Source: Minisyncoccota bacterium (lineage in GTDB: Bacteria; Patescibacteriota; Minisyncoccia; Phycocordibacterales; UBA9973). Taken from it: a DNA stretch of 64,000 bases. Below the pieces are notes generated by a model that was not told the DNA's origin, did not search any database, and was given only the letters and a program-made list of their open reading frames with translations. A program made the translations under genes and the position numbers. Shown one piece after another: positions 6,646 to 62,598 of this stretch (the stretch's first letter is position 1; every line of letters begins with the position of its first letter). The DNA lies in NCBI GenBank assembly GCA_041662525.1, contig JBAZSF010000004.1:1190-65189 (forward strand). The letters are read 5' to 3'.

Positions 6646-8019
6646 ATGAAAAAATTAATTTTAGTTCTTACAGGTTTTGTTTTTTTCTTTAGTTTTAATT
6701 TGGCGCAAGCAAGTGTTGTTATAAATGAAATAAAAATATCACCAACTGAAGATAGATTTATTAAGCTTTACAATCAAGATAATGCTGAAGTTGATTTAAC
6801 TAATTGGTATATTCAAAGAAAAACACAAACTGGAACTAGTTTCACTTCTTTAGTCACAAAGACTTATTTTGAAAATAAAAAAATTAATGCAAATGGTTAT
6901 TTTTTAATTTCTCGTGCTCAAATGGAAAATTCTGAAATTGTTGTTGATAATTTGACACTTACTGAATCAAATGTAATCCAACTTAAAAACTCAAGCGGGG
7001 AAGTAGTAGATAAGGTTTGTTGGGGAGATGTAGATAGCTGTGGAAACCCTAATCCAGATTTAGGTCAAAGTATTCTTGTAACAGATCATGCTTCATCCAC
7101 CGTACCGGCAACTGAAACTTCTTCTTCGAATTCAGACACTGTAGTATCCAATGATGATTCTTCTACAGTACAAATAAAACCTAAAGTAATTGAAAATCCA
7201 GTTATGAAAGTAAAAATTTTAGTTAATACTTTAGCTTTTGCCGGGGAGCCATTTGAAATAAAAACTAATGTTTTAGGGTTTTCTAATGAAAATGTAGTTC
7301 TTGGTAGAGCTTCTTGGAATTTTGGCGACGGTAGTTCATTTGAACAAATAAATAATTTTGAAAAGTTTTCTCATATTTATTATTATCCGGGAGAGTATGT
7401 TTTATTTTTGGAATATTATCAAAATAGTTTTTCAAAAATTCCAGAGGCGACGAGCAAGATGGTAATTAAAGTTCTCCCCACGACTGTTTCTATTTCTAAA
7501 GTAGGGGACGCAAAAGATTTTTTTATAGAACTTTCAAACAATGCTAGTTCGGACATCGATATCTCAAATTGGGTTATTAATGCCAATGGAAAAACTTTTA
7601 TTTTACCAAAAAATAGTGTGATTATGTCTAAAAAACAAATGACAATTTCTGGTAAACTAACTGGATTTACTCTTGGTGATCAAAACAACTTAAAGCTTTA
7701 TTCTGGAACAGGAGAATTGGTGTTTGATTATTTGTCATCTAAAGTTCCCATTGTCGCTAGGCAAGACCTAATAACGACAGCAACTAAGCCAAAAATTTCT
7801 ACAGCGATTCCTCCAGCGGTGAAACCGCTGGAAAATTTAGGCGCTACTGTTTTACAAAGTGATGTCGTAAACAGTGAAAGTTCAAACAATTCAAATACCC
7901 CCATTGTTCCTATTGCTTCTTTTGCTTTTATTGGAGCTGGTGCCGGTGCAGTTTATTTTATTCGTCGAAAAAAAGTTATTCCAAAAGAAGGAGAAGACTT
8001 CGAGATCCTAGATGCATAA
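6646..8019 (+). CDS. Secreted protein with two lamin-tail-like (LTD) domains and a C-terminal TM anchor
   Basis: Signal peptide. VVINEIKISPT…DLTNWYI and a second …FIELSNNASSDIDISNWVI LTD-type motif. The C-terminal GAGAGAVYFIRRKK is a hydrophobic anchor with a basic tail. Confidence 0.65.
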   Translation: MKKLILVLTGFVFFFSFNLAQASVVINEIKISPTEDRFIKLYNQDNAEVDLTNWYIQRKTQTGTSFTSLVTKTYFENKKINANGYFLISRAQMENSEIVVDNLTLTESNVIQLKNSSGEVVDKVCWGDVDSCGNPNPDLGQSILVTDHASSTVPATETSSSNSDTVVSNDDSSTVQIKPKVIENPVMKVKILVNTLAFAGEPFEIKTNVLGFSNENVVLGRASWNFGDGSSFEQINNFEKFSHIYYYPGEYVLFLEYYQNSFSKIPEATSKMVIKVLPTTVSISKVGDAKDFFIELSNNASSDIDISNWVINANGKTFILPKNSVIMSKKQMTISGKLTGFTLGDQNNLKLYSGTGELVFDYLSSKVPIVARQDLITTATKPKISTAIPPAVKPLENLGATVLQSDVVNSESSNNSNTPIVPIASFAFIGAGAGAVYFIRRKKVIPKEGEDFEILDA

Positions 8020-26279: not shown

Positions 26280-26355
26280 GACATTGGAGGCACTTTGTCA
26301 TCTACAACCCAAAAATATATAAATAAATATGGCCTACACGGCTAAAGGAGGAGTT

Positions 26356-27267
26356 ATGGAATTGCATCATATTGCGTTAGTGCTTTTATTGAACGCAAAA
26401 GAAGAGGTGTTGCTCGCCCGTAGAGTTGACAATTGGGAGCTACCTGGTGGGCACGTTGAACCTGCCGATGGAAGTCGTGAAAAAGCATTCGTACGCGAAA
26501 TAAGAGAAGAAACACAACTGAGAGGGATTTTTAATAAACGCCTTTTGTTCAGTCGTGATGAACACAAGGAGGAAAAGTTGTACATGTTCGATATTTATGT
26601 CGGGCATTGCTACGATGAACGATTTCCTGGTTCACTCGTAGCCGAGGGGATTATCGAGACCAAGTGGTGGTCTCTAGACGAGACTAAAGGATTGACGCTG
26701 ACTCCTATGGCAAGTAAAGCGCTTAATTTTTTAAAGGAGAAGCGCTCGTCTTTTATCTCAGAGTGCCGGCATCACTTTCACGTGGTGTTGAACGAGGCAA
26801 AACTTCAGGGGGCTGGAGTTGAGAACATGGAAAACCTCAAGAAGAAAATGGAAGAATGCATAGAGATGTTGTCGATAATTGGCCAGTTACCGCCTGCTGT
26901 CAAGAGCAAAGCAGTCGGTAAGCAAAAGGTCATCGTTATGGTTGACGATGACGAGTATACTCTGTATACACTCAAAAAATTGTTTTCAGCTGAGAAATAC
27001 CGAGTCTACTCCTTTAGCGATCCAAGGGAAGCCTTGGATTGGTTGAAAGAGTCATCAGTTGAAGTTGACGCGCTTGTTACCGACCAGAGAATGCACTGTA
27101 TATATGGTTCAGAGCTTCTCAGGAAGGTGCGCGAGTTGAAGATACTCGCGTCGGCAAAGTTTGTTCTTATCAGCGGTGAAGAAGTTCCCGCTGATGACAA
27201 AAAAGGGTTTGATAAATTCTTTGTCAGACCAGTATCGCCCGATGAGCTCATTCGGGTAATATCATAG
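26356..27267 (+). CDS. NUDIX hydrolase fused to a C-terminal response-regulator receiver (REC) domain
   Basis: Nudix box GGHVEPADGSREKAFVREIREETQL. C-terminal KVIVMVDDDE…DALVTDQRM…KFVLISG has the REC acidic pocket, phospho-Asp and Lys positions. An aaaggagg SD lies 5 nt before ATG(MELHH); the longest ORF starts at 26329. Confidence 0.7.
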   Translation: MELHHIALVLLLNAKEEVLLARRVDNWELPGGHVEPADGSREKAFVREIREETQLRGIFNKRLLFSRDEHKEEKLYMFDIYVGHCYDERFPGSLVAEGIIETKWWSLDETKGLTLTPMASKALNFLKEKRSSFISECRHHFHVVLNEAKLQGAGVENMENLKKKMEECIEMLSIIGQLPPAVKSKAVGKQKVIVMVDDDEYTLYTLKKLFSAEKYRVYSFSDPREALDWLKESSVEVDALVTDQRMHCIYGSELLRKVRELKILASAKFVLISGEEVPADDKKGFDKFFVRPVSPDELIRVIS

Positions 27268-27346: not shown

Positions 27347-28912
27347 ATGAGCATGGTTCGCCTATATGAAAAAATGTTCTCGATAATTAGAATGATTCTC
27401 ACCACAATGCGGCAGTACGTCATGGCACTTGAACATGTCCGGATGCATAAATTAGGAATCACCGATAGCGAACAAAAATTTCGCTTGATAGCGGAGTCGG
27501 TCAATAACGCTATCATCACGTTTGACGAAGCCGGATTCGTAGTGTACTGGAACAAGAGTGCTAAACGCATATTTGGTTTTAATGAAAGCGAGGTCCTAGG
27601 AAAACCATTTATTCTTGGTAAGCACGAAAAGAAAAACAACTGGGACATAGGAAAGAATATTTCAGTCGAGATGCAAGGGGTGCGGAAAAACGGCAAAGAA
27701 TTCCCCTTAAAGGTGTCGTATTCATCGTGGAAAATTGGCGAGAAACAATTCCATACAGCAATTGCCCGAGATGTAGGCCCTTATCGAGCAACAGAACAAA
27801 AGCTCCGCGATTATGCTCAAAAGATGAAAGAGGGTAGGGCATTCGACGACGCGCTTCTCTTGAGCATCGCAGACGGCATTCTAGTAACCGATACGGTAGG
27901 TAAAATTACCTATATCAACAAAGCGCTCGAGGAGCTCTGTGGCATGAAGTCCTCCGAGCTTTTGAACCATGATTTAGATGAAAAGATCCCTTTTTTCGAC
28001 GAGCTCGGGAGACGCGTCTCGAAGGAGAAACGGCCGCTCTATATGGCACTCGATACCGATAAAAAAAACAATGAACTCGCGGTTTCAACTGCGACGACTT
28101 TCCATCTCATTCACAAAAAAGACAAACGAATAGTTCCTCTCTCAATCAGTTCTGCGCCTCTCGTGATCAATGGTGATATTAAGGGGGCGGTGGTAGTCTG
28201 GCGCGATATTACTCAAGAAAAGGAGATCGAAAAAGCAAAAAGTGAGTTTATTTCTCTTGCTTCACACCAGCTCCGCACACCACTCACTACTATTTCCCTG
28301 ACAACTGAGATGTTAATGAAGGGTATGGTGGGTGATATGAGTAAGGAAAATAAAAAATATTTAAAAAAGATTTTTAAAGAAGTAAAAAATATGACAGAAG
28401 TGATCCAAACATTTTTGAATATTTCCCGCATCGAAATGGGCAAATTCGAAATAGAGTTGAAACCGGTAAAATTATTCGAAATTATGGAAGAAATAGTCGA
28501 AGAAATACTGCCACAGATTAATAATAAAAAAATATATTTCAAGAAACAATATAACAAAAATCTACCGACTATAAATTTAGACAAAAGAGTTATTAGAATT
28601 ATCTTGGAAAATCTTCTTTCGAATGCTATTAAATATTCAAAACCGGACGGCCAGATAACACTATTAACAAAAAAAACTGGCAATTATGTTATCATAGAGG
28701 TTTCGGACAATGGTATCGGCATTCCGAAAAAAGATCAAGATAAGATATTTACAAAAATGTTTCGGGCTAGAAACGCTTCGGAGCATGCCAATGTGAGTTC
28801 GGGGCTGGGTCTTTACCTAGTAAAAAATTTAGCAGAACAGAGCGGGTATAAAATCTCTGTTAAATCAAAAGAGGATAAGGGCACCACTTTTTCAATTTCA
28901 TTACCACTATAA
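27347..28912 (+). CDS. Sensor histidine kinase with tandem PAS domains (soluble; no obvious TM)
   Basis: PAS-like segments (…IITFDEAGFVVYWN…, …GILVTDTVGKITYIN…). HisKA H-box SHQLRTPL, N-box LLSNAIKYS, G1 DNGIGIP, G2 GLGLYLV. Confidence 0.85.
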   Translation: MSMVRLYEKMFSIIRMILTTMRQYVMALEHVRMHKLGITDSEQKFRLIAESVNNAIITFDEAGFVVYWNKSAKRIFGFNESEVLGKPFILGKHEKKNNWDIGKNISVEMQGVRKNGKEFPLKVSYSSWKIGEKQFHTAIARDVGPYRATEQKLRDYAQKMKEGRAFDDALLLSIADGILVTDTVGKITYINKALEELCGMKSSELLNHDLDEKIPFFDELGRRVSKEKRPLYMALDTDKKNNELAVSTATTFHLIHKKDKRIVPLSISSAPLVINGDIKGAVVVWRDITQEKEIEKAKSEFISLASHQLRTPLTTISLTTEMLMKGMVGDMSKENKKYLKKIFKEVKNMTEVIQTFLNISRIEMGKFEIELKPVKLFEIMEEIVEEILPQINNKKIYFKKQYNKNLPTINLDKRVIRIILENLLSNAIKYSKPDGQITLLTKKTGNYVIIEVSDNGIGIPKKDQDKIFTKMFRARNASEHANVSSGLGLYLVKNLAEQSGYKISVKSKEDKGTTFSISLPL

Positions 28913-33853: not shown

Positions 33854-35752
33854 ATGTCCTCAATTGATGAAATTAGAGACGTCAGAATAAAAAAACTTGA
33901 ACTTCTAAAAAAGAGGGGTCATGAAGCGTATCCAGCAGATTCTAAAAGAGAAATCTCTCTCAAGGACGCCGTTGATGATTTCGAGAATTTAGAAAAGAGC
34001 AGAGAAGAAAAATGGATTGCCGGCAGGGTGATGTCTATCCGTGGACAAGGGGCAATTATTTTCATTACTTTAAATGATGGCACTGGAACTTTTCAAGGAC
34101 TTCTTAAAAAAGATGTTTTGGGTGATGAAAAGTTTGATTTTTGGAATGAGGTGGTAGACATTGGGGATTTTGTAGAAATACAAGGAACTTTTTTTACGAC
34201 CAAAAGAGGAGAGAAAACTTTAGAAGCCAGAGACTGGCGCATGCTTTCAAAAAGTCTGCGTCCGCTTCCAGAAAAATGGCATGGACTAGTGGATGTAGAA
34301 GAAAGATTTCGAAAAAGATATTTGGATATACTTTTTAATCCTGAAGTTAAGGAAATAGTGGAGAAAAAAGCTATTTTTTGGAATGCCGTTAGAGAGTTTC
34401 ATTTGAAGCATGGTTTTTTAGAAGTGGAAACACCTGTTTTAGAAAATACTACCGGAGGTGCTGATGCCACACCATTCAAAACTCATCATAATGCTTTAGA
34501 CTTAGATGTATATCTCAGAATATCAGCTGGAGAACTTTGGCAGAAAAAATTAATGGCGGCTGGAATTCCTAAAACTTTTGAAATAGGGAGAATCTTCCGT
34601 AATGAAGGAATGTCCCCAGAACATTTACAAGATTACACTCAGTGTGAAGCGTATTGGGCTTATGCCAACTATAAAGATATGTATAAGTTTTTACAGGAAT
34701 GCTATCAGTATGTGGCAGAGAAAACTTTTGGCACTTTGAAGTTTAAAATAAATAATTTTGATGTTGATCTTGGTAAAGAATGGCCTCTTATAGATTACAC
34801 TGAGGAAATAGAAAAACAGACCAAGATAAATATAGAGAAGGCGAGTGAAAAAGAAATTGAATCTAAATTGAAAGAATTAGGTGTGGAATATGAGGCAGAC
34901 AATAAGGCGCGCCTTATTGATTCTTTGTGGAAATACTGTCGTAAGAATATTGGTGGACCAGCTATTTTAATAAATGAACCAAAGATTACTTCTCCTTTGT
35001 CAAAATCTTCTCCTCTTAATCCTAATTTTACAGAACGCTTTCATTTCATCATTGCTGGGTCAGAGGTTGGGCAAGGTTATAGTGAGCTAAATGACCCTAT
35101 TGATCAGTATGAAAGATTTGATAGTCAAGAAAAATTGCGTAAAGCGGGGGACACAGAAGCTCAAATGATGGATAATGATTTCGTTGAAATGCTAGAGCAT
35201 GGAATGCCTCCTACTACTGGTCATGGTTTTAGTGAACGACTTTTTAGTTTCTTGATGAATAAACCGATTCGTGATACTCAAATATTTCCTTTTATGAAGC
35301 CGAAAGATGCAGAAAAGAAAACAGAAAATAAAAAAGGTATGATTGTGGTAGCTGTATTAAATAAAGAAGCCAAAATGGAACCATGGCAAGAATTAAACAC
35401 CGTTGCTCATTTGAATGCGGCTTTTGGTGCTAGAGTGGGGAGGGGAGATTTGTTTTATAGAGATACGATAACTTCCAAAGATAATCATAAAATAAAATTA
35501 AATATCAAAAATGCAATAATGATAAAAACTGCGCCATCTGGCAAAGTGTTGCGTGAATTATTAGAGAAGGCAAAAAAAGCAGAACTCGAAGTGGATGAAT
35601 TTATAAGAGAAATGGTAGAAACAACCAGCGATAAAAAAATTATTGAAATAACCGCTTCTAAAAATTTTGATGAAATTGAACATCTCGGTATTTTAATTTA
35701 TGGACCAAAAAATATCGTTGAGGATTTAACTTCGGATTTTAAGTTATACTAA
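33854..35752 (+). CDS. lysS: Lysyl-tRNA synthetase (class II) with a ~130-aa C-terminal extension of unknown function
   Basis: OB-fold anticodon-binding N-terminus. Class II motifs (…FRNEGMSPEHL…, …GHGFSERLF…). The core ends at about 500 aa; an extra domain (…MIVVAVLNKEAKMEPWQELNTVAHLNAAFGARVGRG…) follows. Confidence 0.88.
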   Translation: MSSIDEIRDVRIKKLELLKKRGHEAYPADSKREISLKDAVDDFENLEKSREEKWIAGRVMSIRGQGAIIFITLNDGTGTFQGLLKKDVLGDEKFDFWNEVVDIGDFVEIQGTFFTTKRGEKTLEARDWRMLSKSLRPLPEKWHGLVDVEERFRKRYLDILFNPEVKEIVEKKAIFWNAVREFHLKHGFLEVETPVLENTTGGADATPFKTHHNALDLDVYLRISAGELWQKKLMAAGIPKTFEIGRIFRNEGMSPEHLQDYTQCEAYWAYANYKDMYKFLQECYQYVAEKTFGTLKFKINNFDVDLGKEWPLIDYTEEIEKQTKINIEKASEKEIESKLKELGVEYEADNKARLIDSLWKYCRKNIGGPAILINEPKITSPLSKSSPLNPNFTERFHFIIAGSEVGQGYSELNDPIDQYERFDSQEKLRKAGDTEAQMMDNDFVEMLEHGMPPTTGHGFSERLFSFLMNKPIRDTQIFPFMKPKDAEKKTENKKGMIVVAVLNKEAKMEPWQELNTVAHLNAAFGARVGRGDLFYRDTITSKDNHKIKLNIKNAIMIKTAPSGKVLRELLEKAKKAELEVDEFIREMVETTSDKKIIEITASKNFDEIEHLGILIYGPKNIVEDLTSDFKLY

Positions 35753-52157: not shown

Positions 52158-53948
52158 TTAACAACCTACTCCCACTTTCCAAAATTCTATAGCTTGAAGA
52201 ATTAAGGAATTTAAAACATTGCCGATCTTCCATTGACCTATATAAGATAAAATTTCCGCATTACCAATAACACCATCGAGATTTGTGTCAGCTGTAGTTT
52301 GACAAGCAGGGCCGACCGCTGTCACGGTAACTATTGAAGCATTACTAGTTACTGCGTCTGAAGTCGCAGTGATGTTTGTCGTACCAGCAGCTACTGCTGT
52401 TACGAGACCCGTAGCACTCACTGTAGCTACTGCTGTATCAGAAGAATTCCAAGTCATCGCAGGTTGAGTCGCTAGAGCTACACTATTTTGATCTAAAGCA
52501 GAAGCTGATAGTTGAGAAGTACCTGCGACTACTATACTCGCTGTTGTTGGTGTGACTGAAATTGAAGTGAGGACGGGATTTGGGGTAATAGCCACCACAT
52601 TGACAGTCCTGGTAACCGACGTAGCTGGATTACCAGCGGCGTCAGAAACGTTGTAGGTCAAAATGTAACTCCCCAAAGTGGCTGTATCTACTGTACCGGT
52701 GACAATTATGTTGGCAGTGATATTGCCATCCACATCATCAGAAGCAGTGGCTCCTGGATCAGTGAAGACACTTGCTTGAACCACATCCACTGGGTTAGCT
52801 CCAAGTAATATAATGACTGGGAGAGTGGTGTCAGCAGGTGGTGAAACAGCTGTAATAATTATTGTGACTGGAGATGAAACTGGCGCTGATACCATGTCAT
52901 CAACAATTACATTAAAATTATAAGTTCCTGCTATGCTTGGGGTCCATGAAAATGTTCCCATGGCATTAATTGATGATCCAATAGGCGCATTCGCGTCAAG
53001 CGTATACATTAGCATTCCCTGATTTGGATTAGTGGCAATTACATCAAATGTTACTGCTTGCCCAACTGTTCCATTTTGTTGAGGTATTGGGGTTATGACT
53101 GGAGATGCTGCAAAGCTAGCGCTGATCGTATGAGCAATAGTAACGTTGGTGAAGGTGTAAGTCGCAACTGCGCCAACTGAAACTCCGTCCACCAAAACAT
53201 CCGCTACTACGAAATTAGTATTCGGAGTTATGGTGTAAGCTCTATTTGCTCCATGATTAACCGACGTCACTCCAAGAGGAGAAATTGTTCCGTTGGCGCC
53301 CGTCGAAGATGTAATGTTGTAAGTATTAATCGCGAAACTTGCATTGATCGTGTGAGTAGTTGTTACATTATTAAATGTATAATTTAAAACTGCTCCGACT
53401 GAAGATCCGTCAACTAAAACATTAGCTATATGATAACCGGTGTTTGGTGTAATTGTATAACTTTGACTTGATCCGGAGTTAACAGGGGTTGTTCCAGCTG
53501 GAGTAACTGTCCCTCCCGCGGTACTTGCAACTGAAACTATATTATGAGTTGTTGCTGTAGATGATATTACCAAATTTACGTTTGTTAACGGTTCAACAAC
53601 AAATGATCTGGTTACGTTTGTACTAAATGCTCCAAATGTCGCGTTTAATTGAATTTGATCTCCAGCAACGGTACAGATATTTAGGTTGCTTGTGTCGATC
53701 TGGTAAAATCCTCCCAAAGAGGTTACGACTGATAGTGCGGGGGATCCATTTGTAACGTCAGTAAGCGTGACAGTGGCATTATCAGTCGCTATACCATTAA
53801 ATGTAACTGTCCCATAAAATGTATTTAGCGGACATCCTTGAGCCGCAATAGCCGGGGTAGGCGAGATGAAAGCAAATTGCATTATCGCGGAAGCTACTAT
53901 CAAACTTACTATTTTTTTTATTGTATTTTTTGAGATATTTATGTTCAT
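52158..53948 (-). CDS. Secreted surface protein with Big_2 Ig-like domains and a Cys-flanked dockerin-like C-terminal module
   Basis: Signal peptide. Big_2-type segment (VLTSISVTPTTASIVVAGTSQLSA…). C-terminal CQTTADTNLDGVIGNAEILSYIGQWKIGNVLNSLILQAIEFWKVGVGC, almost identical to the C-terminus of the 60637-62598 protein. Confidence 0.6.
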   Translation of the reverse strand: MNINISKNTIKKIVSLIVASAIMQFAFISPTPAIAAQGCPLNTFYGTVTFNGIATDNATVTLTDVTNGSPALSVVTSLGGFYQIDTSNLNICTVAGDQIQLNATFGAFSTNVTRSFVVEPLTNVNLVISSTATTHNIVSVASTAGGTVTPAGTTPVNSGSSQSYTITPNTGYHIANVLVDGSSVGAVLNYTFNNVTTTHTINASFAINTYNITSSTGANGTISPLGVTSVNHGANRAYTITPNTNFVVADVLVDGVSVGAVATYTFTNVTIAHTISASFAASPVITPIPQQNGTVGQAVTFDVIATNPNQGMLMYTLDANAPIGSSINAMGTFSWTPSIAGTYNFNVIVDDMVSAPVSSPVTIIITAVSPPADTTLPVIILLGANPVDVVQASVFTDPGATASDDVDGNITANIIVTGTVDTATLGSYILTYNVSDAAGNPATSVTRTVNVVAITPNPVLTSISVTPTTASIVVAGTSQLSASALDQNSVALATQPAMTWNSSDTAVATVSATGLVTAVAAGTTNITATSDAVTSNASIVTVTAVGPACQTTADTNLDGVIGNAEILSYIGQWKIGNVLNSLILQAIEFWKVGVGC

Positions 53949-53999: not shown

Positions 54000-56900
54000 T
54001 TATGGTCGGTGAATGAATATTCCATCACCTTGATTGATAATGAAATCATTCAATGGAAACCCGATTATATGGCTACTATATTGCTGTATTGCCGAGTCCC
54101 ATTTGGTAACAACATCAGTACCGGCAAGTGAAGCGCCAAAAGTTTCTGCCGTGGTTGATATTGCGCTGACCCATCCAAGAAGATTCCAGCCAGTTATGGG
54201 ATTATAAGTGGCTTGAGCTGGAGATCCTTGGAATACAAATGGACTAGCTGCTGGAACATTCACAAAGAAACCATCACCTATAGTAAGATTAAAGTTATTC
54301 AATGGAAATCCAACTATATGACTGCTGTATTTCTGTGTCAGAGAATCCCATTTTACAACGACCGTTGCACCGACTGTTTGTCCAAAGTTTTCCGCTGTTA
54401 ATGTCATAGGAGTCCCCTGAGCATCAAGCGGAGTTGCGGGTAGTGTAACTAAATTCCATCCATCGTTTAGTGAAAGCATATAACTTCCAGGAGGAAGATC
54501 TCCCGCTGTTACATTGGCAGTGTTGGAATATGTTGAATTAGCAGTTGCGGTAGGGAAGCCAATTGAGGGATCCGCGTATATTTGTGTATCGCCAACAACA
54601 TTATTGGCAAAAACTCTATAATAATATGTCTGCCCCGGTTGGATAGAATTATCCAAGTATGCGGTTGCATTAACCGGAGATGTGTAAGTTATCAATCCGC
54701 TCGTAAATCCAGAGTTGGTAGCTTTTTGAATTGTAAATCCAGTTTCACTTAATGAATTATCATTCCAATTTAACTGCACTGCATTAGAAGCAAAATTTGC
54801 TGTTAAATTTGAAGGAGCTTCCGGTGGAGTGGCGAATAAAACTGCATGCATCATATCCATTTCTTCATGCGCTAAGAGATGGCAGTGATAAACATATTCC
54901 CATCCATAGTTTACATAATGATTGTTTACTGTGACATTGTTTCCATTAGGATCTTTGAGTCCGCCAGGTGGTAGCATTAACGGCGCACCCTCAGGCAATG
55001 TGGGATCAATCAAGCGCACACTATTGGGAACTGGGAATGGTTGAGTTGGAGCAAATGCTCTGAAAGCAACTATGGTGTCTTGTAAAGGATTCACTCTAAA
55101 TGTTTCCTTCCACCCGAGTTCGTTGGCATCAGGCGGTCTTATAGCACCATCCCAGGCGACTCTGTTTATAAGCTGAGCATTAAACAGGTGGGTATGGATG
55201 GTATGAGTGTCTACACCATTGTGTGTAATTTTCCAGATTTGGGTGCCGTCATCAAGAGATCCTATCGGTGTTCCGTATACAGAGCCTTTGACGATTTCAA
55301 CTGGCGGAGAGGCAAAACCGGAAAGAATGAGTAATTGTCTGTTAACTTGTGATGCTGGAAGTTCAAGCCCGAGAAATCCACTCATTCTTCCGTATTCCGA
55401 ATCGAATGCTTCGCCCTGCTCATCTTGGATAGCTTTTGTTTGGAAAGGTATAGTGACATTATCACCGGCGAGAGTATTGAATGTTTTTGATGCGTCATGA
55501 ATACTGGCATAATTATCTGTTGTAATATTAGAATTATAAGCTGAATTATATGCAGTTTGCGGTATGATAACTTCATCCTGAGACACTTCGAAAACTCCGC
55601 GTTTTGTACCAGGTCCTTTGGCAAATACCGCTTCTAGTGCGCCTAGATTGTATGCAGTCGCTGGAGTGGTAGGCGCCACTCTGATTTGCATTACAGTTCT
55701 TATATTAGGACCGTAACCGGCTTGGGTTGTCGGAGCTCCGCCTATGTCTGTCAAATCCGGGTCTCCGGTATGATAATCATAACGAGCATCAGCGGCTGGA
55801 AATGCTGCCGGAGCATCGTTGTATAAAATAATTGTTTTGCCCGCGTACTGTGAAAAATCAACAATTACATCCGCTCGTTCAGCCGTACCAAGGATAAGAG
55901 TTCCTTTGTTAACTAATCCCATGTCAAAGTTTGTCGGGTCCATATTCCAGTCAACTGGTTGATTGGGCAATACTACCGGTGCTGGCAAGAATCCTCCTTC
56001 GGTTCCAATTTGAATAAATGTCGGACCTGCGGTTGTCGGATCAGGCACCCCTCCTTCTCGTCCATCTTTTGGCCAATCTTCCGGGAATCCGGGAGTAGAG
56101 ACAGCTGGTACCATTTTTATTTCCGTGTTTGTTCTGCCATCAGGGGTAATAATTGTCGGATCTGCAACATAGAACTGTAAATTAAGGAAACGATCATCTG
56201 CGGCATTTAAAATTCTAAATCTGTACGCTTTTGGGTCTACGTTCATATACGGATACACTGTTCCATTGACAATGGGAGTGTCCATAAAAGCTTCCATCGC
56301 CATAGACTCATTTGGTGTTCCAGGCATTTGAGCTGGTTCCCATGGTGCACCTACTGGATCATAATATGGATTTGGAAGCGGGCCTTGAGTTACCCCAGTT
56401 GTTGGTGGCCAAAACCATGGACCATAGTGCCATCTCCCAAAAGCATTCATTCCGCTGGGATCCGCAGGATTTTGGTTTGGCATATAAACGTGTGGGTACC
56501 AAAGATCGCCATCTTGGGGAACTCCTGGTACTGCTGAATCCCACGTTGGATCTTGCATCGCAAGAGTACTGGTATCAATAAATGTTCTATCTTGAATAAT
56601 TAACGGGATACCAATATCCGGAAGAACTTTCACCAACCCAGGGTTAACTCCGGAATCATTTGTTCCATTAATTAAATCTTGTTCTACTTGGTCGGTAATT
56701 AAATATCCAGCCGCTTCTCCTGCATAAACATTTAAACGGGTAATTCCAAAAGAATGATCATGATAGAACATCAATCTAGCACTTTGTTGGTTGTTATAGT
56801 AAAAAGTAAGTGAACCATCTCCAGGGTTATTTGTTGCTCCTGGGGTTGGCGCTGTAATTTGACCGACTGTGTCTGCGACTACACTGCCATTTACAAACCA

Positions 56901-57923
56901 CATGTCGGGAACATACTCAACACTCACACCTTTCGGATAAGATGTAGTTTCACCCGCCGGAGTAGTCCATTGATGAGGAGTTCCATCACTTATCCATGGA
57001 ACAAATCCTCCATGAAGGTGCAATGTTGCCCTATTTTCTTTGTACTCTTCTTTCATTCCAGGCATTCCCGGCATATCCAATGGACCCATACCGGCACCCA
57101 TTACTGATTTATCAACTGGCAAAAAAAGTTCTCCACCTGCTCCAGTTGGAAGTTTATTTGTAAATTTAATTCTTACAGCACGATCACGATTAGAAAGAAT
57201 TAGCGGACCAAGATAATGAATCGGATCCGGCGCAATCGTATTCTGGCTGTTGCCATCAGTACCTGAATTTACCTGTACATAACCGCGTAATTTTGTTGCC
57301 GGAAGATCGGAATGCATCTTTTCCGTATATTCCCTTAATTCAATTTCATAATAATCAGCTCCCGGATAAGTAATTGTATCCGGATGCGCTACTGGGATAT
57401 ATTGTCCAAGATTGTTGGCATTAGTTGAACCTAATCCTGGCAAAGAATCCACGAATTTTTTTATTCCTCCAGTTAATGTCGAGTATCCACTCCCACCATT
57501 GGTGATTGTAATTTCAGTAATGACACCGGCAGTTGTTGAAGCTGTTGCATTTGCTCCGGTTCCAGTAAGACTTGTGATTGCAACTATTGGAGAAATATAA
57601 TTTGTTCCTCCGTTAATAATTGATATTGCGGTAACAGCCCCATTAGTAATTGTTGCTGTTGCGATAGCTCCTGTAGCTCCGCTTGTTGTGTTTGAGTCTG
57701 TGATTGTTACAACAGTCGGTTCACCGACTGGCATAGGACTATTTGCCCAGTTTGGATAAGGACCAAAATAATGTGGAATCTCTCCGGTGTTGGGAATCGT
57801 CATCGCCATAGCAACTGTCGATTTTGCATATTTGATATTTTCAATCGGCAAAGCAACAAAAGAAAAAATAAAAGACAAAATTATAAAAATATTTCCTAAA
57901 TTTCTTAAATAATTATTTTTCAT
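54000..57923 (-). CDS. Giant secreted multicopper oxidase (laccase/CotA-like, three cupredoxin domains) with FN3 and tandem C-terminal repeat domains
   Basis: Signal peptide. All four MCO copper-ligand motifs are present: HLHGG, YHDHS, HTIHTHLF, HCHLLAHEEMDMM. An FN3-like segment and two about 90-aa C-terminal repeats (…KWDS…QYSSHI(V/I)GFPLN…GDG(F/I)F…). Confidence 0.75.
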   Translation of the reverse strand: MKNNYLRNLGNIFIILSFIFSFVALPIENIKYAKSTVAMAMTIPNTGEIPHYFGPYPNWANSPMPVGEPTVVTITDSNTTSGATGAIATATITNGAVTAISIINGGTNYISPIVAITSLTGTGANATASTTAGVITEITITNGGSGYSTLTGGIKKFVDSLPGLGSTNANNLGQYIPVAHPDTITYPGADYYEIELREYTEKMHSDLPATKLRGYVQVNSGTDGNSQNTIAPDPIHYLGPLILSNRDRAVRIKFTNKLPTGAGGELFLPVDKSVMGAGMGPLDMPGMPGMKEEYKENRATLHLHGGFVPWISDGTPHQWTTPAGETTSYPKGVSVEYVPDMWFVNGSVVADTVGQITAPTPGATNNPGDGSLTFYYNNQQSARLMFYHDHSFGITRLNVYAGEAAGYLITDQVEQDLINGTNDSGVNPGLVKVLPDIGIPLIIQDRTFIDTSTLAMQDPTWDSAVPGVPQDGDLWYPHVYMPNQNPADPSGMNAFGRWHYGPWFWPPTTGVTQGPLPNPYYDPVGAPWEPAQMPGTPNESMAMEAFMDTPIVNGTVYPYMNVDPKAYRFRILNAADDRFLNLQFYVADPTIITPDGRTNTEIKMVPAVSTPGFPEDWPKDGREGGVPDPTTAGPTFIQIGTEGGFLPAPVVLPNQPVDWNMDPTNFDMGLVNKGTLILGTAERADVIVDFSQYAGKTIILYNDAPAAFPAADARYDYHTGDPDLTDIGGAPTTQAGYGPNIRTVMQIRVAPTTPATAYNLGALEAVFAKGPGTKRGVFEVSQDEVIIPQTAYNSAYNSNITTDNYASIHDASKTFNTLAGDNVTIPFQTKAIQDEQGEAFDSEYGRMSGFLGLELPASQVNRQLLILSGFASPPVEIVKGSVYGTPIGSLDDGTQIWKITHNGVDTHTIHTHLFNAQLINRVAWDGAIRPPDANELGWKETFRVNPLQDTIVAFRAFAPTQPFPVPNSVRLIDPTLPEGAPLMLPPGGLKDPNGNNVTVNNHYVNYGWEYVYHCHLLAHEEMDMMHAVLFATPPEAPSNLTANFASNAVQLNWNDNSLSETGFTIQKATNSGFTSGLITYTSPVNATAYLDNSIQPGQTYYYRVFANNVVGDTQIYADPSIGFPTATANSTYSNTANVTAGDLPPGSYMLSLNDGWNLVTLPATPLDAQGTPMTLTAENFGQTVGATVVVKWDSLTQKYSSHIVGFPLNNFNLTIGDGFFVNVPAASPFVFQGSPAQATYNPITGWNLLGWVSAISTTAETFGASLAGTDVVTKWDSAIQQYSSHIIGFPLNDFIINQGDGIFIHRP

Positions 57924-58086
57924 ATATCTCTATATTAATTATTAATAATCGATTACTTTTTAGTATTAAAAAACTTACAAACTTAATAATAGTCAAACGA
58001 TAATAGCTGAAGTTAAATTTGACATTAAAGATTTTAAGGGCATTTTGATTTTTTAAAAAAATATTATTATTTCTGAGCAAAAAAAA

Positions 58087-58095
58087 GGGGGGGGG
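58087..58095. repeat. G9/C9 homopolymer in the MCO promoter region
   Basis: The only long G/C homopolymer seen in this AT-rich window. About 165 bp upstream of the MCO start, just downstream of the terminator of the preceding gene. Confidence 0.6.
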
Positions 58096-58114
58096 AGTCC
58101 TTGCTTAAAATAAC

Positions 58115-58146
58115 AAAAAACCGGAAGACTAGTCCGGTTTTTGTTA
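58115..58146. terminator. Rho-independent terminator after the PG-binding surface protein gene
   Basis: aaaaaaccggaagactagtccggtttttgtt. Confidence 0.8.
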
Positions 58147-58179: not shown

Positions 58180-60591
58180 TTATCTATTAAGTGCCGCGCG
58201 AGTGAGAGGTCCTACGATCCCATCGCCAATTAATCCATTCACTATTTGGAATTTAATGAGAGCCCCACCGGTTATTCTTCCAAATTTTCCATCAACCACT
58301 AGTGGACCATATTTGGTGTTGTTTAAGAACTTCTGAAGTTCCATAACTTCGTTTCCTATTGAGCCATTCCTAAGGAAAAGAGTAAAGAAGAATCTTTCAT
58401 CTCCGAGCACTTGACTTGTTCCAGTATTTCCAACACAAGATTGACCAGTAGTTACACTAAATCCAGTTGTTCTATTGCCACATCCAGGAATTGGTCCAGT
58501 ATTCCCAACACAAGATTGACCAGTAGTTACACTAAATCCAGTTGTTCTATCGCCACATCCAGGAATTGGTCCTCCTGTTCCAGTATTTCCAACACAAGAT
58601 TGACCAGTAGTTACACTAAATCCAGTTGCCCTATTGTCACATCCTGCAATTGGTCCTGTTGAAGCACCTAATACTTGGCCAATAAGGGGTCTTATAAAAC
58701 TACCGCCACCGCCTCCTCCACTAGATTGAGGCACTGCTGTCACCGTCACCAAAGTCGTTCCAGTCACTGCTCCACTAGTTGCGGTAACTGTGGTAGTTCC
58801 TACTGCGACTGCAGTAAACATTCCAGTGGTAGCATTAATCGTTCCGACTGCTAGATTAGAACTTGTCCAAGTGACAGTCGCTACAAATGGTGCTCCGTTT
58901 TGATCCAAAGTGGTAGCGGTCATTTGCTGAGTGTTTCCTACTACTACGGATGGGTTAGCTGGGTTAACAGTGATAGAAGTTAAAACTGGAACAGCCGTCA
59001 CCGTCACCAAAGTCGTTCCAGTCACTGCTCCACTAGTTGCGGTAACTGTGGTAGTTCCTACTGCGACTGCAGTAAACATTCCAGTGGTAGCATTAATCGT
59101 TCCGACTGCTGGATTGGAGCTTGTCCAAGAAACAGTGGCTGCGATTGGTGCTCCGTTTTGATCTAAAGTAGTTGCTGTCATTTGCTGAGTATTCCCAACC
59201 GTGACAGAAGGAGTAGTGGGGGTGACGTTGATGGTGGTGAGGACGGGGGTTGGGGCTGCCGTTACCGTCACTGACGTACCACCTAAAATTGGTACTTCTG
59301 TTACACCATTAGAATCAAAAGCGAATGTGCCAGAAAATGTACTTACTCCCGAAGCTGTTCCTGGGATAGCAAGTGTGTATTGTCTTGTACCTGAAGCAGC
59401 TCCAGTTAATTCAAGCCATCGAATGTGTCCACCAGCGATGGTTCCTGTACCAGAGAGGTCTGTGGCGACCCAACCAGCAGGGAATATTTCATCGATGAGA
59501 ACAGTTCCGTTTGCATCGGCTGGATCAACAGCAGAAGTCAAAGTTACGGTGATGACTGTTCCGGCAGTTGGAGTAGCATTACTGAAACTGCGGGTGACGG
59601 TGGAATTTACCACCACTGGTGCTGTCACTGTCACCAAAGTAGTCCCTGTCACTGCGCCACTTGTAGCGGTGATAGTCGTGGTTCCTACTGCGACTGCAGT
59701 AAACATTCCAGTGGTAGCATTAATCGTTCCGACTGCTGGATTGGAGCTTGTCCAAGAAACAGTGGCTGCGATTGGTGCTCCGTTTTGATCTAAAGTAGTT
59801 GCGGTCATTTGCTGAGTATTCCCAACCGTGACAGAAGGAGTAGCGGGGGTGACGTTGATGGTGGTGAGGACGGGGGTTGCTGTCACTGTAATTACTGAAA
59901 TATTACTGGTCACTGCCCCTGAGGTCGCTGTAATATTTGTTGTACCAACAGAAACCGCAGTCACTAAACCAGTCGCACTAACTGTGGCTACTGCGGGATT
60001 GGATGAGTTCCAAGTCATCACAGGTTGAGGGGACATTGCTACCGCATTTTGATCTAAAGCAGAAGCACTTAATTGAGAAGTGCCTGCGACTACCAAACTA
60101 GCTGTTGTTGGAGTTAAGTTTATTGAAGTAAGTACTGGCGTAACAATTACTGCTGTCACTGTCACCGATGTATCACCAAGAATTGGTACTTCCGTTGCAC
60201 CATTAGAGTTAAAAGCGAATGTGCCAGAAAATGTACTTACTCCCGAAGCTGTTCCTGGGATAGCAAGTGTGTATTGTCTTGTACCTGAAGCAGCTCCAGT
60301 TAATTCAAGCCATCGAATGTGTCCACCAGCGATGGTTCCTGTACCAGAGAGGTCTGTGGCGACCCAACCAGCAGGGAATATTTCATCGATGAGAACAGTT
60401 CCGTTTGCATCGGCTGGATCAACAGCAGAAGTCAAAGTTACGGTGATGACTGTTCCGGCAGTTGGAGTAGCATTACTGAAACTGCGGGTGACGGTGGAGG
60501 CGTCAGCGGCCTGAGCACCAATTCCCACAAAGAAAGCAATTACTGCCACTACCATTCCTATTTTTTTAATTATTGATTTTAAGTATTTCAT
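58180..60591 (-). CDS. Surface scaffold-like protein: duplicated novel ~110-aa domain, four Big_2 domains, three Cys-repeats and a C-terminal peptidoglycan-binding (PG_binding_1-like) domain
   Basis: Signal peptide. Novel domain (STVTRSFSNATPTAG…GTFAF) present twice. Repeated Big_2 domains. Gly-rich linker. 3x GC(D/G)xR(A/T)TGFSVTTGQSCVGNTG. C-terminal …KFLNN…VDGKFGRITGGALIKFQ…GLIGDGIVGPLT…. Confidence 0.65.
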   Translation of the reverse strand: MKYLKSIIKKIGMVVAVIAFFVGIGAQAADASTVTRSFSNATPTAGTVITVTLTSAVDPADANGTVLIDEIFPAGWVATDLSGTGTIAGGHIRWLELTGAASGTRQYTLAIPGTASGVSTFSGTFAFNSNGATEVPILGDTSVTVTAVIVTPVLTSINLTPTTASLVVAGTSQLSASALDQNAVAMSPQPVMTWNSSNPAVATVSATGLVTAVSVGTTNITATSGAVTSNISVITVTATPVLTTINVTPATPSVTVGNTQQMTATTLDQNGAPIAATVSWTSSNPAVGTINATTGMFTAVAVGTTTITATSGAVTGTTLVTVTAPVVVNSTVTRSFSNATPTAGTVITVTLTSAVDPADANGTVLIDEIFPAGWVATDLSGTGTIAGGHIRWLELTGAASGTRQYTLAIPGTASGVSTFSGTFAFDSNGVTEVPILGGTSVTVTAAPTPVLTTINVTPTTPSVTVGNTQQMTATTLDQNGAPIAATVSWTSSNPAVGTINATTGMFTAVAVGTTTVTATSGAVTGTTLVTVTAVPVLTSITVNPANPSVVVGNTQQMTATTLDQNGAPFVATVTWTSSNLAVGTINATTGMFTAVAVGTTTVTATSGAVTGTTLVTVTAVPQSSGGGGGGSFIRPLIGQVLGASTGPIAGCDNRATGFSVTTGQSCVGNTGTGGPIPGCGDRTTGFSVTTGQSCVGNTGPIPGCGNRTTGFSVTTGQSCVGNTGTSQVLGDERFFFTLFLRNGSIGNEVMELQKFLNNTKYGPLVVDGKFGRITGGALIKFQIVNGLIGDGIVGPLTRAALNR

Positions 60592-60636: not shown

Positions 60637-62598
60637 TTAACACCCTACTCCCACTTTCCAAAATCCTATGGCTTGAAGAATTAAGGAATTTAAAACATTA
60701 CCAAGTTTCCATTGACCTATGTAAGATAAAATTTCTACGTTGCCAATAATTCCATCGAGATTAGTGTCAGCTGCAGTTTGGCAAACTGCAGCAGTGGTAA
60801 CAGTAATTGCTGAAGTTCCCTCGACCGTAATTACTCCATCAATTGCAGTAGCTGTAATCGTGACAGTGCCAGGAGCGATCGCAGTAACTAATCCTGAACC
60901 ATCAACAGTGGCAATAGCATTATCACCTGAAGACCAATTTATTGTTGGTTGAGGAACTAAAGCATTTCCAAATTGATCCAAGGCTGATGCTGAAAGTTGT
61001 TGAGTTAATCCTGTATTTATCGAAGCAGTGGTTGGAGTGACATTTAACCCAGATAAAATAGTGACAGCGAGAGAATGATCGATCGTTGTGGAATTACTTC
61101 CATCAGTAGCTGTAATAGGGATATTAAATAATCCTGCTCTGTCCAAATTTGGTAGAATAAGCGACCAGGTACCGTCTGTTTCAGATCCAGCATTTCTAAT
61201 CATGTTTACTATGTTTGGAGTAGGAATTATTTGCCCACGAATTTCACCGTTTGAAAATAGAGTGGTGTGTATATTTACATAAGTTCTCCCAGCTAAAATT
61301 TCTGCTTCTATTTCTTCAGGATAATTCCAGGTTCCATTTGCTGGAAGTGTAGTTCCTAGATCAAAAGTAATTGCTGAATTTTGACCCAAAGCTCCGTTTG
61401 GAGGAACAACAGATCCATGAATATGCATTCCGGTGATTGATCCACCTTGCAAACCCGAAGCACTAATATTATAAGTTAATGTATTTGCATTTGTATCAAT
61501 AGTAAATGTTCCGGATCCTGTTGCTGTACTAGTGGTTGCAGGAACTTCTTGTGTTTTATTAAGAGTAGCAGTAAAGGTGTTGCTTAGTGCCCCCAAATCA
61601 GCGGTAACTCCAATCACCCTCAGATCATCAGTAACGTTTGCGCTTAAAACAACATTATTAGAACCAAGTGGTACAGAAGCAGGTGCAGTAGAAACTATGG
61701 TTGGAGCGATGGTGTCAACAACCGCGATACGTCCAGTAACAGTAAATAAATTTTCTTGAATGAAACCGGCACCAGCAAAACTTGTTGCGGGGCCCTCAAT
61801 TCTTATAAAGTTTTGTCCAACAGGGCTACCAGTAATAGCGTGCGGTATATTTGGATTACCAATATATCTTTTGGTTGGATTCTGAGCGTTGACCAAGAGA
61901 GGATCCGACAAAGCTGGATTTAGATTGAACGTGTCCCAAGTCAAGAACGGTCCGATACCACTGTTAAGAGTAAGAATAGGATCACAAATGGCTATACCTG
62001 GAACACCAGCACAACCGATATCAGACGAATCATTGATTTCTGGAGCTCCCGGATCTATTACGTCCACGACATAAGTTTTTGTACCGAAAGGATGTCTGAT
62101 GGTGTATGTTCCGGGCACATCTACATCGTATCTGTGTCTGATGCGACCAAAAATAGATTCACTACCCTCAACCGTTCCACCGAGATAAGCAACCTCTAAA
62201 GCTAAAATGGTCTTACTGACAGAGCCGGCAGGATTAACTGGGATAGCGTCAGCCGTCCAGTAGAATCCTTCGCCCGAAAATCCGAGTTCTGCGGAAAAAT
62301 CATTTCCACCCTGAATCGGCCCTGAGATACCGAAACCGTCGATGGCTTCCATGATCTCAATCGCAAGACCGTTCTGGTCCATAAACCATGCAGGTAAACT
62401 CTTACCAATACCTGCAGTTACAATAGGACCAGCCATTCCACCAGGCACGAATGCCGCTTGGGAGACGTTCGCGCTAAACAATAAAGCAAACACAAAAACA
62501 CCAGTCAAAAGAGATGCGCTATATTTATATTTAACCTTTTTATTCATTCTCGCTATTAATAAAACGTATAATAATTTTTGTATGATTGTTTTTTTCAT
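60637..62598 (-). CDS. Secreted surface protein with CHRD-like and Big_2 domains and the shared dockerin-like C-terminal module
   Basis: Signal peptide. CHRD-like segment (…LTYNISASGLQGGSITGMHIHG…). Big_2. C-terminal CQTAADTNLDGIIGNVEILSYIGQWKLGNVLNSLILQAIGFWKVGVGC. Confidence 0.6.
   Translation of the reverse strand: MKKTIIQKLLYVLLIARMNKKVKYKYSASLLTGVFVFALLFSANVSQAAFVPGGMAGPIVTAGIGKSLPAWFMDQNGLAIEIMEAIDGFGISGPIQGGNDFSAELGFSGEGFYWTADAIPVNPAGSVSKTILALEVAYLGGTVEGSESIFGRIRHRYDVDVPGTYTIRHPFGTKTYVVDVIDPGAPEINDSSDIGCAGVPGIAICDPILTLNSGIGPFLTWDTFNLNPALSDPLLVNAQNPTKRYIGNPNIPHAITGSPVGQNFIRIEGPATSFAGAGFIQENLFTVTGRIAVVDTIAPTIVSTAPASVPLGSNNVVLSANVTDDLRVIGVTADLGALSNTFTATLNKTQEVPATTSTATGSGTFTIDTNANTLTYNISASGLQGGSITGMHIHGSVVPPNGALGQNSAITFDLGTTLPANGTWNYPEEIEAEILAGRTYVNIHTTLFSNGEIRGQIIPTPNIVNMIRNAGSETDGTWSLILPNLDRAGLFNIPITATDGSNSTTIDHSLAVTILSGLNVTPTTASINTGLTQQLSASALDQFGNALVPQPTINWSSGDNAIATVDGSGLVTAIAPGTVTITATAIDGVITVEGTSAITVTTAAVCQTAADTNLDGIIGNVEILSYIGQWKLGNVLNSLILQAIGFWKVGVGC

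Follow-up and report, generated by a model that had tools for sequence, protein, structure and literature searches.

The gene studied here lies in a 64-kb window, the whole stretch of DNA that was analysed, from a bacterium of the Candidate Phyla Radiation (CPR), and it encodes a very large multicopper oxidase (MCO). It is complete in the list of open reading frames (ORFs), occupying 54000..57923 on the minus strand with its stop codon at 54000-54002, and it begins with ATG; the 1307-aa product agrees with the first-pass annotation of the sequence. From N- to C-terminus, and on the minus strand throughout, we divide the product into a putative Sec-type signal peptide or N-terminal anchor (residues 1-40, 57804..57923), a beta-rich N-terminal module (residues 41-170, 57414..57803), a catalytic core of three cupredoxin domains (residues 171-1030, 54834..57413), a fibronectin type III (FN3) domain (residues 1031-1130, 54534..54833), and a C-terminal tandem module (residues 1131-1307, 54003..54533). 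Read directly, the N-terminus consists of MKNNYLRNLGN, a 16-residue hydrophobic core, and then AMA, with neither a twin-arginine (RR) motif nor a lipobox Cys in residues 1-40. This reading suggests export by a Sec-type signal, in line with the earlier prediction that the protein is secreted.

The core carries a complete set of copper ligands. Four copper motifs had been claimed in canonical order, and their positions were confirmed, each falling on the corresponding motif of CotA in HMMER alignments. Motif 1 (H302-L-H304, continued by G; 57012..57020) supplies ligands to the type 2 (T2) and type 3 (T3) copper sites, and motif 2 (H388-D-H390; 56754..56762) supplies T3 ligands. Motif 3 (H901-NGV-D905-T-H907-TI-H910-T-H912; 55188..55223) contains histidines of the type 1 (T1), T2 and T3 sites; it is preceded by an invariant His and Asp, with D905 at position -2 from the T1 His, H907. 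Motif 4 (H1013-C1014-H1015-LLA-H1019-E1020-EMD-M1024-M1025; 54849..54887) provides a T3 His, the T1 Cys, a T3 His, and a T1 His, followed by the counterpart of CotA E498 and by the axial Met; C1014 is the sole cysteine of the protein. All 12 ligand positions (10 His, 1 Cys, and the axial Met) align with H105, H107, H153, H155, H419, H422, H424, H491, C492, H493, H497, and M502, which we take to be the CotA ligands; none is substituted or falls outside the cupredoxin domains. D313 (in WISDG; S312-D313-G314, 56982-56990) and E1020 (in HEE) align with CotA D116 and E498, presumably the second-sphere carboxylates that assist O2 reduction, and both are invariant in the family. Motif counts here and below cover 243 retrieved family proteins, and column conservation refers to an alignment of 42 sequences. 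A regular expression found all four copper motifs in 243/243 proteins, and HCHxxxHExxDMM occurred in 241/243. Every ligand column was invariant, as were the columns of motif 1 and of S312-D313-G314.

The best matches in a sequence search of the PDB were CotA-type laccases and bilirubin oxidases (7z5p, E=6.3e-28; 1gsk, E=2.8e-27), with collinear HMMER blocks over all three cupredoxin domains. Because the alignment spans all three domains, we interpret the similarity as homology to MCOs and not as a chance match of motifs. By sequence, the protein is a three-domain MCO of the CotA/bilirubin oxidase/PhsA clade with a complete T1/T2/T3 ligand set, and it is very probably an oxidase that reduces O2. 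Pfam models recognized it in part: Cu-oxidase_2 scored 32 bits against a cutoff of 20.4, Cu-oxidase_3 scored 13.1 against 21, and the central Cu-oxidase domain was not reported. NCBIfam equivalogs were far below their cutoffs (PhsA, 113.6 versus 950; CueO, NF008205, 42 versus 525). The family diverges from the Pfam seeds.

Compared with Bacillus CotA and bilirubin oxidases (1gsk, 7z5p), the CPR protein adds the N-terminal module, the FN3 domain, the C-terminal module, and five insertions in the core, and it is predicted to be secreted, whereas CotA is part of the spore coat. These insertions, A (residues 328-372), B (418-525), C (585-673), D (707-892), and E (944-1003), account for the roughly 350 aa by which the core exceeds CotA. 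Insertions B-E are found in every aligned family member (gaps <=1%) at 59-71% identity, compared with 66-87% for the cupredoxin blocks, and from this conservation we regard them as family-defining structures; the structure model is unreliable for them. The long N-terminal region noted earlier proved to be a conserved family module (residues ~41-170) with two GGxGY-type repeats. It is common to 137/243 family proteins and is also in the alignment consensus. Pfam and PDB sequence searches with this module gave no match, and it was modelled as beta strands with low to moderate confidence. The FN3 domain was likewise present as annotated, with a Pfam fn3 score just below threshold. Since alignments to named homologs run from residue ~40 to ~1140, the FN3 domain is a common feature of the family.

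The MCO family is very large: searching 5.8 billion proteins brought up over 6,000 clusters. The best clusters were 54-69% identical to the query over up to ~89% of its length, with lengths of 1,160-2,100 aa, and across Archaea and Bacteria members of 1,100-2,100 aa are 50-69% identical. Named sources of these clusters included Methanoperedens, Methanolobus, Methanosphaerula, Methanospirillum, and Thermoplasmata, as well as Anaerolineales/Chloroflexi, Aquicultor, Geothermincolia, and Saccharicenans. In a scan of GTDB with one genome per species, at least 583 species had a family member. The best 80 of these species included archaea (Bathyarchaeota, Methanomassiliicoccales, Methanoregula) and diverse bacteria (Omnitrophota, Planctomycetota, Clostridium malenominatum, Pelotomaculum, Peptococcaceae, Coriobacteriia, Syntrophobacteraceae, Desulfobulbus, Geomonas paludis), along with a few likely aerobes (Neobacillus, Ectobacillus, Nakamurella), and no CPR genome was among them. 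The family comes mostly from anaerobes, including methanogens, Methanoperedens, Bathyarchaeia, Clostridia, Anaerolineae, and Geobacteraceae. We found no curated Pfam or NCBIfam model specific to it, the only label being a COG-style 'FtsP/CotA-like multicopper oxidase', and our literature search returned nothing specific on MCOs in CPR, Parcubacteria, or Patescibacteria.

The nearest named relatives of the CPR protein belong to Methanoperedens (66% identity), Thermoplasmata (65%), Chloroflexota (63%), and Omnitrophota (61%). An older horizontal transfer of the gene is likely, and because these relatives are spread over several phyla, a donor lineage cannot be named. No plasmid among 72,556 gave a tblastn match at E<=1e-20.

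The closest described kind of protein is formed by Geobacter OmpB (GSU1394) and OmpC (GSU2657) and Leptothrix MofA, a likeness that we draw from their descriptions and not from their own sequences. Published work describes OmpB as an extracellular MCO set apart by an FN3 domain (PMC5566968, PMC6013743), which is required, like OmpC, to reduce insoluble Fe(III) oxide (PMC5566968, PMC6013743, PMC3495685). The same publications report that OmpB is homologous to the putative Mn oxidase MofA, and that mofA is followed by mofB, a gene for an FKBP-type isomerase (PMC5566968, PMC3495685, PMC6013743). We liken the query to this kind because size, FN3 domain, and predicted secretion match, the query being a putatively secreted MCO that exceeds 1,000 aa and carries FN3, and because Geobacteraceae members of its family pair with FKBP genes. 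The Geobacter proteins, too, are very large secreted MCOs with FN3, located at the cell surface of an anaerobe. The earlier view of the protein as a laccase/CotA-type T1/T2/T3 oxidase holds for its sites, which are complete and of the CotA/bilirubin oxidase clade, and does not hold for a plain CotA or laccase.

Geobacteraceae isolates with family members are Geomonas paludis, Geobacter sp. DSM 9736, Geomobilimonas luticola, and Pelotalea. Identity to the query within high-scoring segment pairs (HSPs) was 51% for Geomonas paludis, 53% for Geomobilimonas luticola, and 58% for Geobacter sp. DSM 9736, where the HSPs compared span from 467 residues (Geobacter sp. DSM 9736, partial) to ~1,050 residues. 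An FKBP-family gene lies directly upstream of the MCO in all three Geobacteraceae loci inspected (3/3); in Geobacter sp. DSM 9736, only an FKBP_N domain is recorded for it. Geomobilimonas luticola has two tandem FKBP-MCO pairs beside polysaccharide export genes and a multihaem cytochrome, and further small MCO genes lie near the locus of Geobacter sp. DSM 9736. G. sulfurreducens was not among the 120 matches listed in a search with the Geomonas homolog. The likeness also has limits. OmpB is thought to act in electron-transfer machinery that the CPR host would lack, the C-terminal module of the CPR protein differs from the OmpB/MofA kind, and none of the MofA-type neighbours (FKBP/MofB, a MofC-type cytochrome c, SCO1/SenC) is near the CPR gene, whose neighbours are genes for immunoglobulin (Ig)-like surface proteins and obg.

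Residues near the T1 copper offer some indication of the electron donor. The segment S540-MAM-E544-AFM-D548 (56280..56306, minus strand) is a putative part of the substrate pocket and among the best-conserved peptides of the family, with S540, E544, and D548 invariant and M547 nearly so. In the HMMER alignment, E544 and D905 correspond to CotA A227 and G417, which we take to line the CotA substrate pocket, so that the query has Glu and Asp where CotA has small residues. An Asp at -2 from the T1 His was found in 240/243 family proteins and HNGVDTH in 207/243, and this peptide was picked by the locus-finding step as one of the two most conserved patterns of the family. Because E544 and D905 are acidic and essentially invariant beside T1, we favour a metal cation over bulky phenolics as the donor, giving the cation slightly less than an even chance.

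Two kinds of metal-oxidizing MCO offer comparisons for this pocket. In the ferroxidase LPR1, the Fe(II) site is an acidic triad of E269, D370, and D462, with D462 two residues before T1 His464, and the published motif 1 puts E269 at the position of CotA 'PAF' (bioRxiv 10.1101/2021.03.19.436157). The E269 and D462 positions are acidic in LPR1 ferroxidases as are their equivalents in the query, E544 and D905. The query segment N702-DAPAAFPAA-D712 (55788..55820, minus strand), which precedes a linker, resembles the start of LPR1 motif 2 (N-D-A-x-x-x-F-P-x-x-D). We do not file the query as an LPR1-type ferroxidase because the strict motifs are unmatched, the linker is longer (~31 aa versus 5-10 aa), and the D712 position is often Val; the query is also twice the size of LPR1, with additional domains. 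We likewise rejected a CueO-type cuprous oxidase, given the low NF008205 score and a sole Met-rich loop (VMGAGMGPLDMPGMPGM) that lies in domain 1, before HLH. In CueO, a Met-rich lid is in domain 3 and the signal is of the Tat type, and the query has neither. We do not regard the loop as a CueO-like lid because of its location and because it is not conserved.

The two C-terminal repeats of the first-pass annotation are a real duplication, with units 46% identical to each other (E=2e-20), and are shorter than proposed, at ~80 aa instead of ~90 aa each. The unit consensus is of the type GWNL...TAE.FG...W....Q.Y.SH..G.P.N.F....G.G.F.H. Residues 1131-1307 were absent from every other family member retrieved, and by sequence comparison the module is separate from the MCO family proper. 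A word-indexed search with the module found a single relative, the tail of an MCO gene on contig L087 (JGI 3300037810). This 6.1-kb contig (52% GC), from a second, unrelated organism, encodes an MCO, the same C-terminal module, and then a homologous Ig-like gene; its MCO is 46% identical in the last domain, and ahead of the C-terminal repeats there is an apparent frameshift or miscall. The pair of MCO and Ig-like gene may travel together.

An exhaustive HMMER search of 1.84 billion representatives recovered 1,056 proteins with the C-terminal module at E<=1e-3. Among the top 149 of these, 138 cover the full tandem module, and in 83% of the 138 it lies within 15 residues of the C-terminus. The N-termini that we inspected in module-bearing proteins resemble signal peptides. 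In nine sampled proteins, the module is joined to an animal-type haem peroxidase with RTX repeats, polysaccharide deacetylases, Big_2 arrays, beta-helix/NosD-like proteins, and an M28 peptidase. P0245 (1587 aa), at 54% identity the best match, is a secreted haem peroxidase of the animal type that also has RTX repeats, a hint of an organism that uses the module to display several oxidative enzymes outside the cell. Given that most of the full-length matches inspected carry the module at their end, and that it occurs on unrelated secreted enzymes, its probable role is surface display or anchoring. It is widespread and unnamed, and structure prediction gives it a confident fold for which there appears to be no solved counterpart, making this common, putative surface-display domain a separate lead.

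Our proposal, held with somewhat better than even confidence, is that the protein works as an active MCO tethered at the cell surface, where it would accept electrons at T1 from an external reductant and use them to reduce O2 to water, removing both O2 and reactive reduced metals. Sec-dependent export would bring the enzyme to the surface of the Paceibacterota cell, and the C-terminal tandem module would tether it there as a generic display unit. Insertions B-E, like the N-terminal module and the FN3 domain, would be an inheritance from a large family of extracellular MCOs, of the OmpB/MofA kind, that has spread horizontally among anaerobes. A donor would bind in a pocket of invariant acidic and Met residues (E544, M547, D548, D905, and often D712) and electrons would enter singly at the type-1 copper (H907, C1014, H1019, and axial M1024). 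From there they would pass via the Cys-His bridge to the trinuclear T2/T3 cluster (H302, H304, H388, H390, H910, H912, H1013, H1015), where O2 would be reduced to two waters with D313 and E1020 as the proton relay. Fe(II) or Cu(I) would be the most plausible donors, and Mn(II) a possible one. Because the host would lack a respiratory chain, the reaction could not conserve energy. Its use would most likely be protective, combining O2 removal with the oxidation of reduced metals at the surface and releasing no reactive oxygen species.

Several points weigh against this proposal. Our literature search found no activity data for members of this exact family. The AlphaFold2 (AF2) model has low confidence precisely where the insertions lie and near several ligand loops, so pocket geometry is not established, and the signal peptide and surface tethering are themselves inferences. 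The position of D712 is Asp in 139/243 proteins and Val in 40/243, the rest having other residues or being unmatched (counts from a first-match regular expression, with ~16 spurious matches included). The three strict LPR1 motifs are unmatched in the query and found in 16, 0, and 0 of 243 family proteins, and the Met-rich loop occurs in only 78/243. A copper chaperone, a copper exporter, and an FKBP partner are all absent from the 64-kb window. That the host is without a respiratory chain is, to our knowledge, true of CPR bacteria in general, and the genome seen here amounts to 64 kb.

The foremost alternative, which we consider unlikely, is that the protein is a laccase-type oxidase whose donors are organic, for example phenolics, humics, lignin fragments, or compounds of the host surface. 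Such an enzyme could release nutrients, detoxify phenolics, or cross-link and modify the cell or host envelope. The closest solved relatives, CotA and bilirubin oxidases, do oxidize bulky organics, and the secreted haem peroxidase with the same anchor would fit an oxidative toolkit, but the small or apolar A227 and G417 of CotA are here an invariant Glu and Asp, which favours cations. The large conserved insertions surround the core, and whether they close the pocket cannot be read from the model. Some sources do name family members 'laccase', but this annotation is automatic and not experimental. A mineral role like that of OmpB/OmpC is less probable again, and we regard it as distinctly unlikely: the protein would attach to or exchange electrons with Fe(III)/Mn(IV) oxides, or oxidize Mn(II) as MofA may do, with no part in O2 defence. 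The published accounts of the need for FN3-bearing OmpB in Fe(III) oxide reduction (PMC5566968, PMC6013743, PMC3495685) would suit this role, as would Geobacteraceae family members with 51-58% HSP identity over partial to near-full regions and their pairing with an FKBP isomerase gene, as mofA is paired with mofB. It would, however, call on a cytochrome network that is not expected in a CPR cell and of which the window holds no sign, and no FKBP, cytochrome c, or SCO1 partner is nearby.

An oxidoreductase using an acceptor other than O2 in anoxic habitats is very improbable. The Pyrobaculum MCO McoP reportedly has N2O reductase activity, but the trinuclear cluster and both acids for O2 reduction are strictly conserved in the query, as in O2-reducing MCOs, and we found no sequence feature specific for another acceptor. 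The possibility of an artefact, such as a contaminating contig or chimera, or of a copper-less adhesin of the SufI/FtsP type, is effectively refuted. Unlike SufI, the protein has every copper ligand, and it scores 16 bits against a cutoff of 581 for NCBIfam FtsP (NF008135). The absence of CPR genomes from the best 80 GTDB matches might suggest contamination, as might the GC content of the gene, which is 42% against a window average of ~35%, but the excess is in codon positions 1 and 2, reflecting amino acid composition. GC at third codon positions (GC3) is 0.294, which differs from the value for housekeeping genes (0.265 +/- 0.062) by less than one standard deviation. Since GC3 is host-like and the excess is confined to positions 1 and 2, we consider the gene resident and codon-adapted, and on the host-like GC3 we rejected a recent horizontal arrival. 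The gene order MCO / 596-aa Ig-like / Obg / MYG1 is kept in ENA (99.93%, 6 mismatches) and Logan (100%) assemblies, so that the junctions to Obg and MYG1 are the same in three assemblies. On this synteny, with the host-like GC3, we rejected contamination or a chimera. An identical protein is on record as MFA6257887.1 (locus WC671_02665) from a metagenome-assembled genome of a Candidatus Paceibacterota bacterium, bearing out the earlier assignment to a CPR organism.

CPR bacteria are regarded as minimal fermenters with almost no redox enzymes, and an O2-reducing oxidase had been flagged as unexpected in such a genome. We find it a modest surprise, as the kind of protein is already known, if poorly characterized. 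Because the family is typical of strict anaerobes, including methanogens, the paradox of an oxidase in an anaerobe belongs to the whole family and not to this genome, and it is already embodied by Geobacter OmpB and OmpC. The finding would mean that at least one CPR lineage invests ~4 kb in extracellular oxygen or metal chemistry. It also points to a very large and strongly conserved family of giant MCOs, common to methanogens, anaerobic methanotrophic (ANME) archaea, Bathyarchaeia, Clostridia, and Geobacter, that has neither a curated model nor biochemistry. Being small, putatively Sec-exported, and with a single cysteine, the query could be a convenient representative for biochemical work. 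More speculatively, the whole family could be a horizontally traded extracellular shield of strict anaerobes, a low-Km metallo-oxidase burning Fe(II)/Cu(I) against O2, a proposal that we consider unlikely. If it were true, an MCO with a surface-display module may be the main oxygen defence of a CPR episymbiont and could protect an attached host.

The remaining genes of the window are those of a typical fermentative CPR bacterium, as had been presumed. Central metabolism is represented by RpiB, Rpe, a split transketolase, enolase, PPDK, a 2-hydroxyacid dehydrogenase, and glycerate kinase, and housekeeping functions by FtsA/FtsZ, MraZ/MraW/PBP/Mur, aminoacyl-tRNA synthetases, and seven tRNAs. 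Among the ~50 ORFs of the window, we found no respiratory, copper-handling, or oxygen-defence genes, apart from a thioredoxin-reductase-like flavoprotein.

Four genes in a row on the minus strand encode putatively secreted Ig-like proteins, and the MCO gene stands third among them. The first encodes a 653-aa protein with CHRD and Big_2 domains (60637-62598), and the second an 803-aa protein with four Big_2 domains and a C-terminal PG_binding_1 domain (58180-60591), which suggests a peptidoglycan-anchored surface protein. The 803-aa protein also has a long, near-identical internal duplication of a ~130-aa N-terminal unit and three Cys-containing GCGxRTTGFSVTTGQSCVGNTG repeats. The fourth gene, downstream of the MCO, encodes a 596-aa protein with Bact_surface_Ig-like and Big_2 domains in Pfam (52158..53948). 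Its last ~50 aa contain an EF-hand/dockerin-like calcium loop (DTNLDGVIGNAE) between two cysteines.

Intergenic features suggest how this run is transcribed. A terminator-like hairpin with a T-run follows the 803-aa gene (58116..58142, minus strand) and would separate it from the transcription unit of the MCO, whose start is preceded by an AT-rich gap of 256 bp. The MCO stop and the 596-aa gene are 51 bp apart, with no terminator in this interval, and the two genes probably form a single transcription unit, in agreement with the occurrence of this gene pair on contig L087. After the upstream terminator and ahead of the MCO start, the window has a C9T8 homopolymer tract (~58086-58102). We rejected phase variation at this tract, as its length is identical in the window and two other assemblies.

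Elsewhere in the window, a NUDIX-response-regulator fusion (26329-27267, plus strand) and a PAS histidine kinase (27347-28912, plus strand) reach GC3 values of 0.48 and 0.43, where the other genes have 0.265 +/- 0.06. These are the clearest compositional outliers and were possibly acquired recently. A class II tRNA synthetase of the lysyl/aspartyl type is fused to a C-terminal DUF2000 domain (33854-35752, plus strand). Two further plus-strand genes, for a lamin-tail-domain protein (6646-8019) and for a type IV pilin-like protein with an N_methyl motif (1590-2201), encode surface or attachment components typical of CPR episymbionts.

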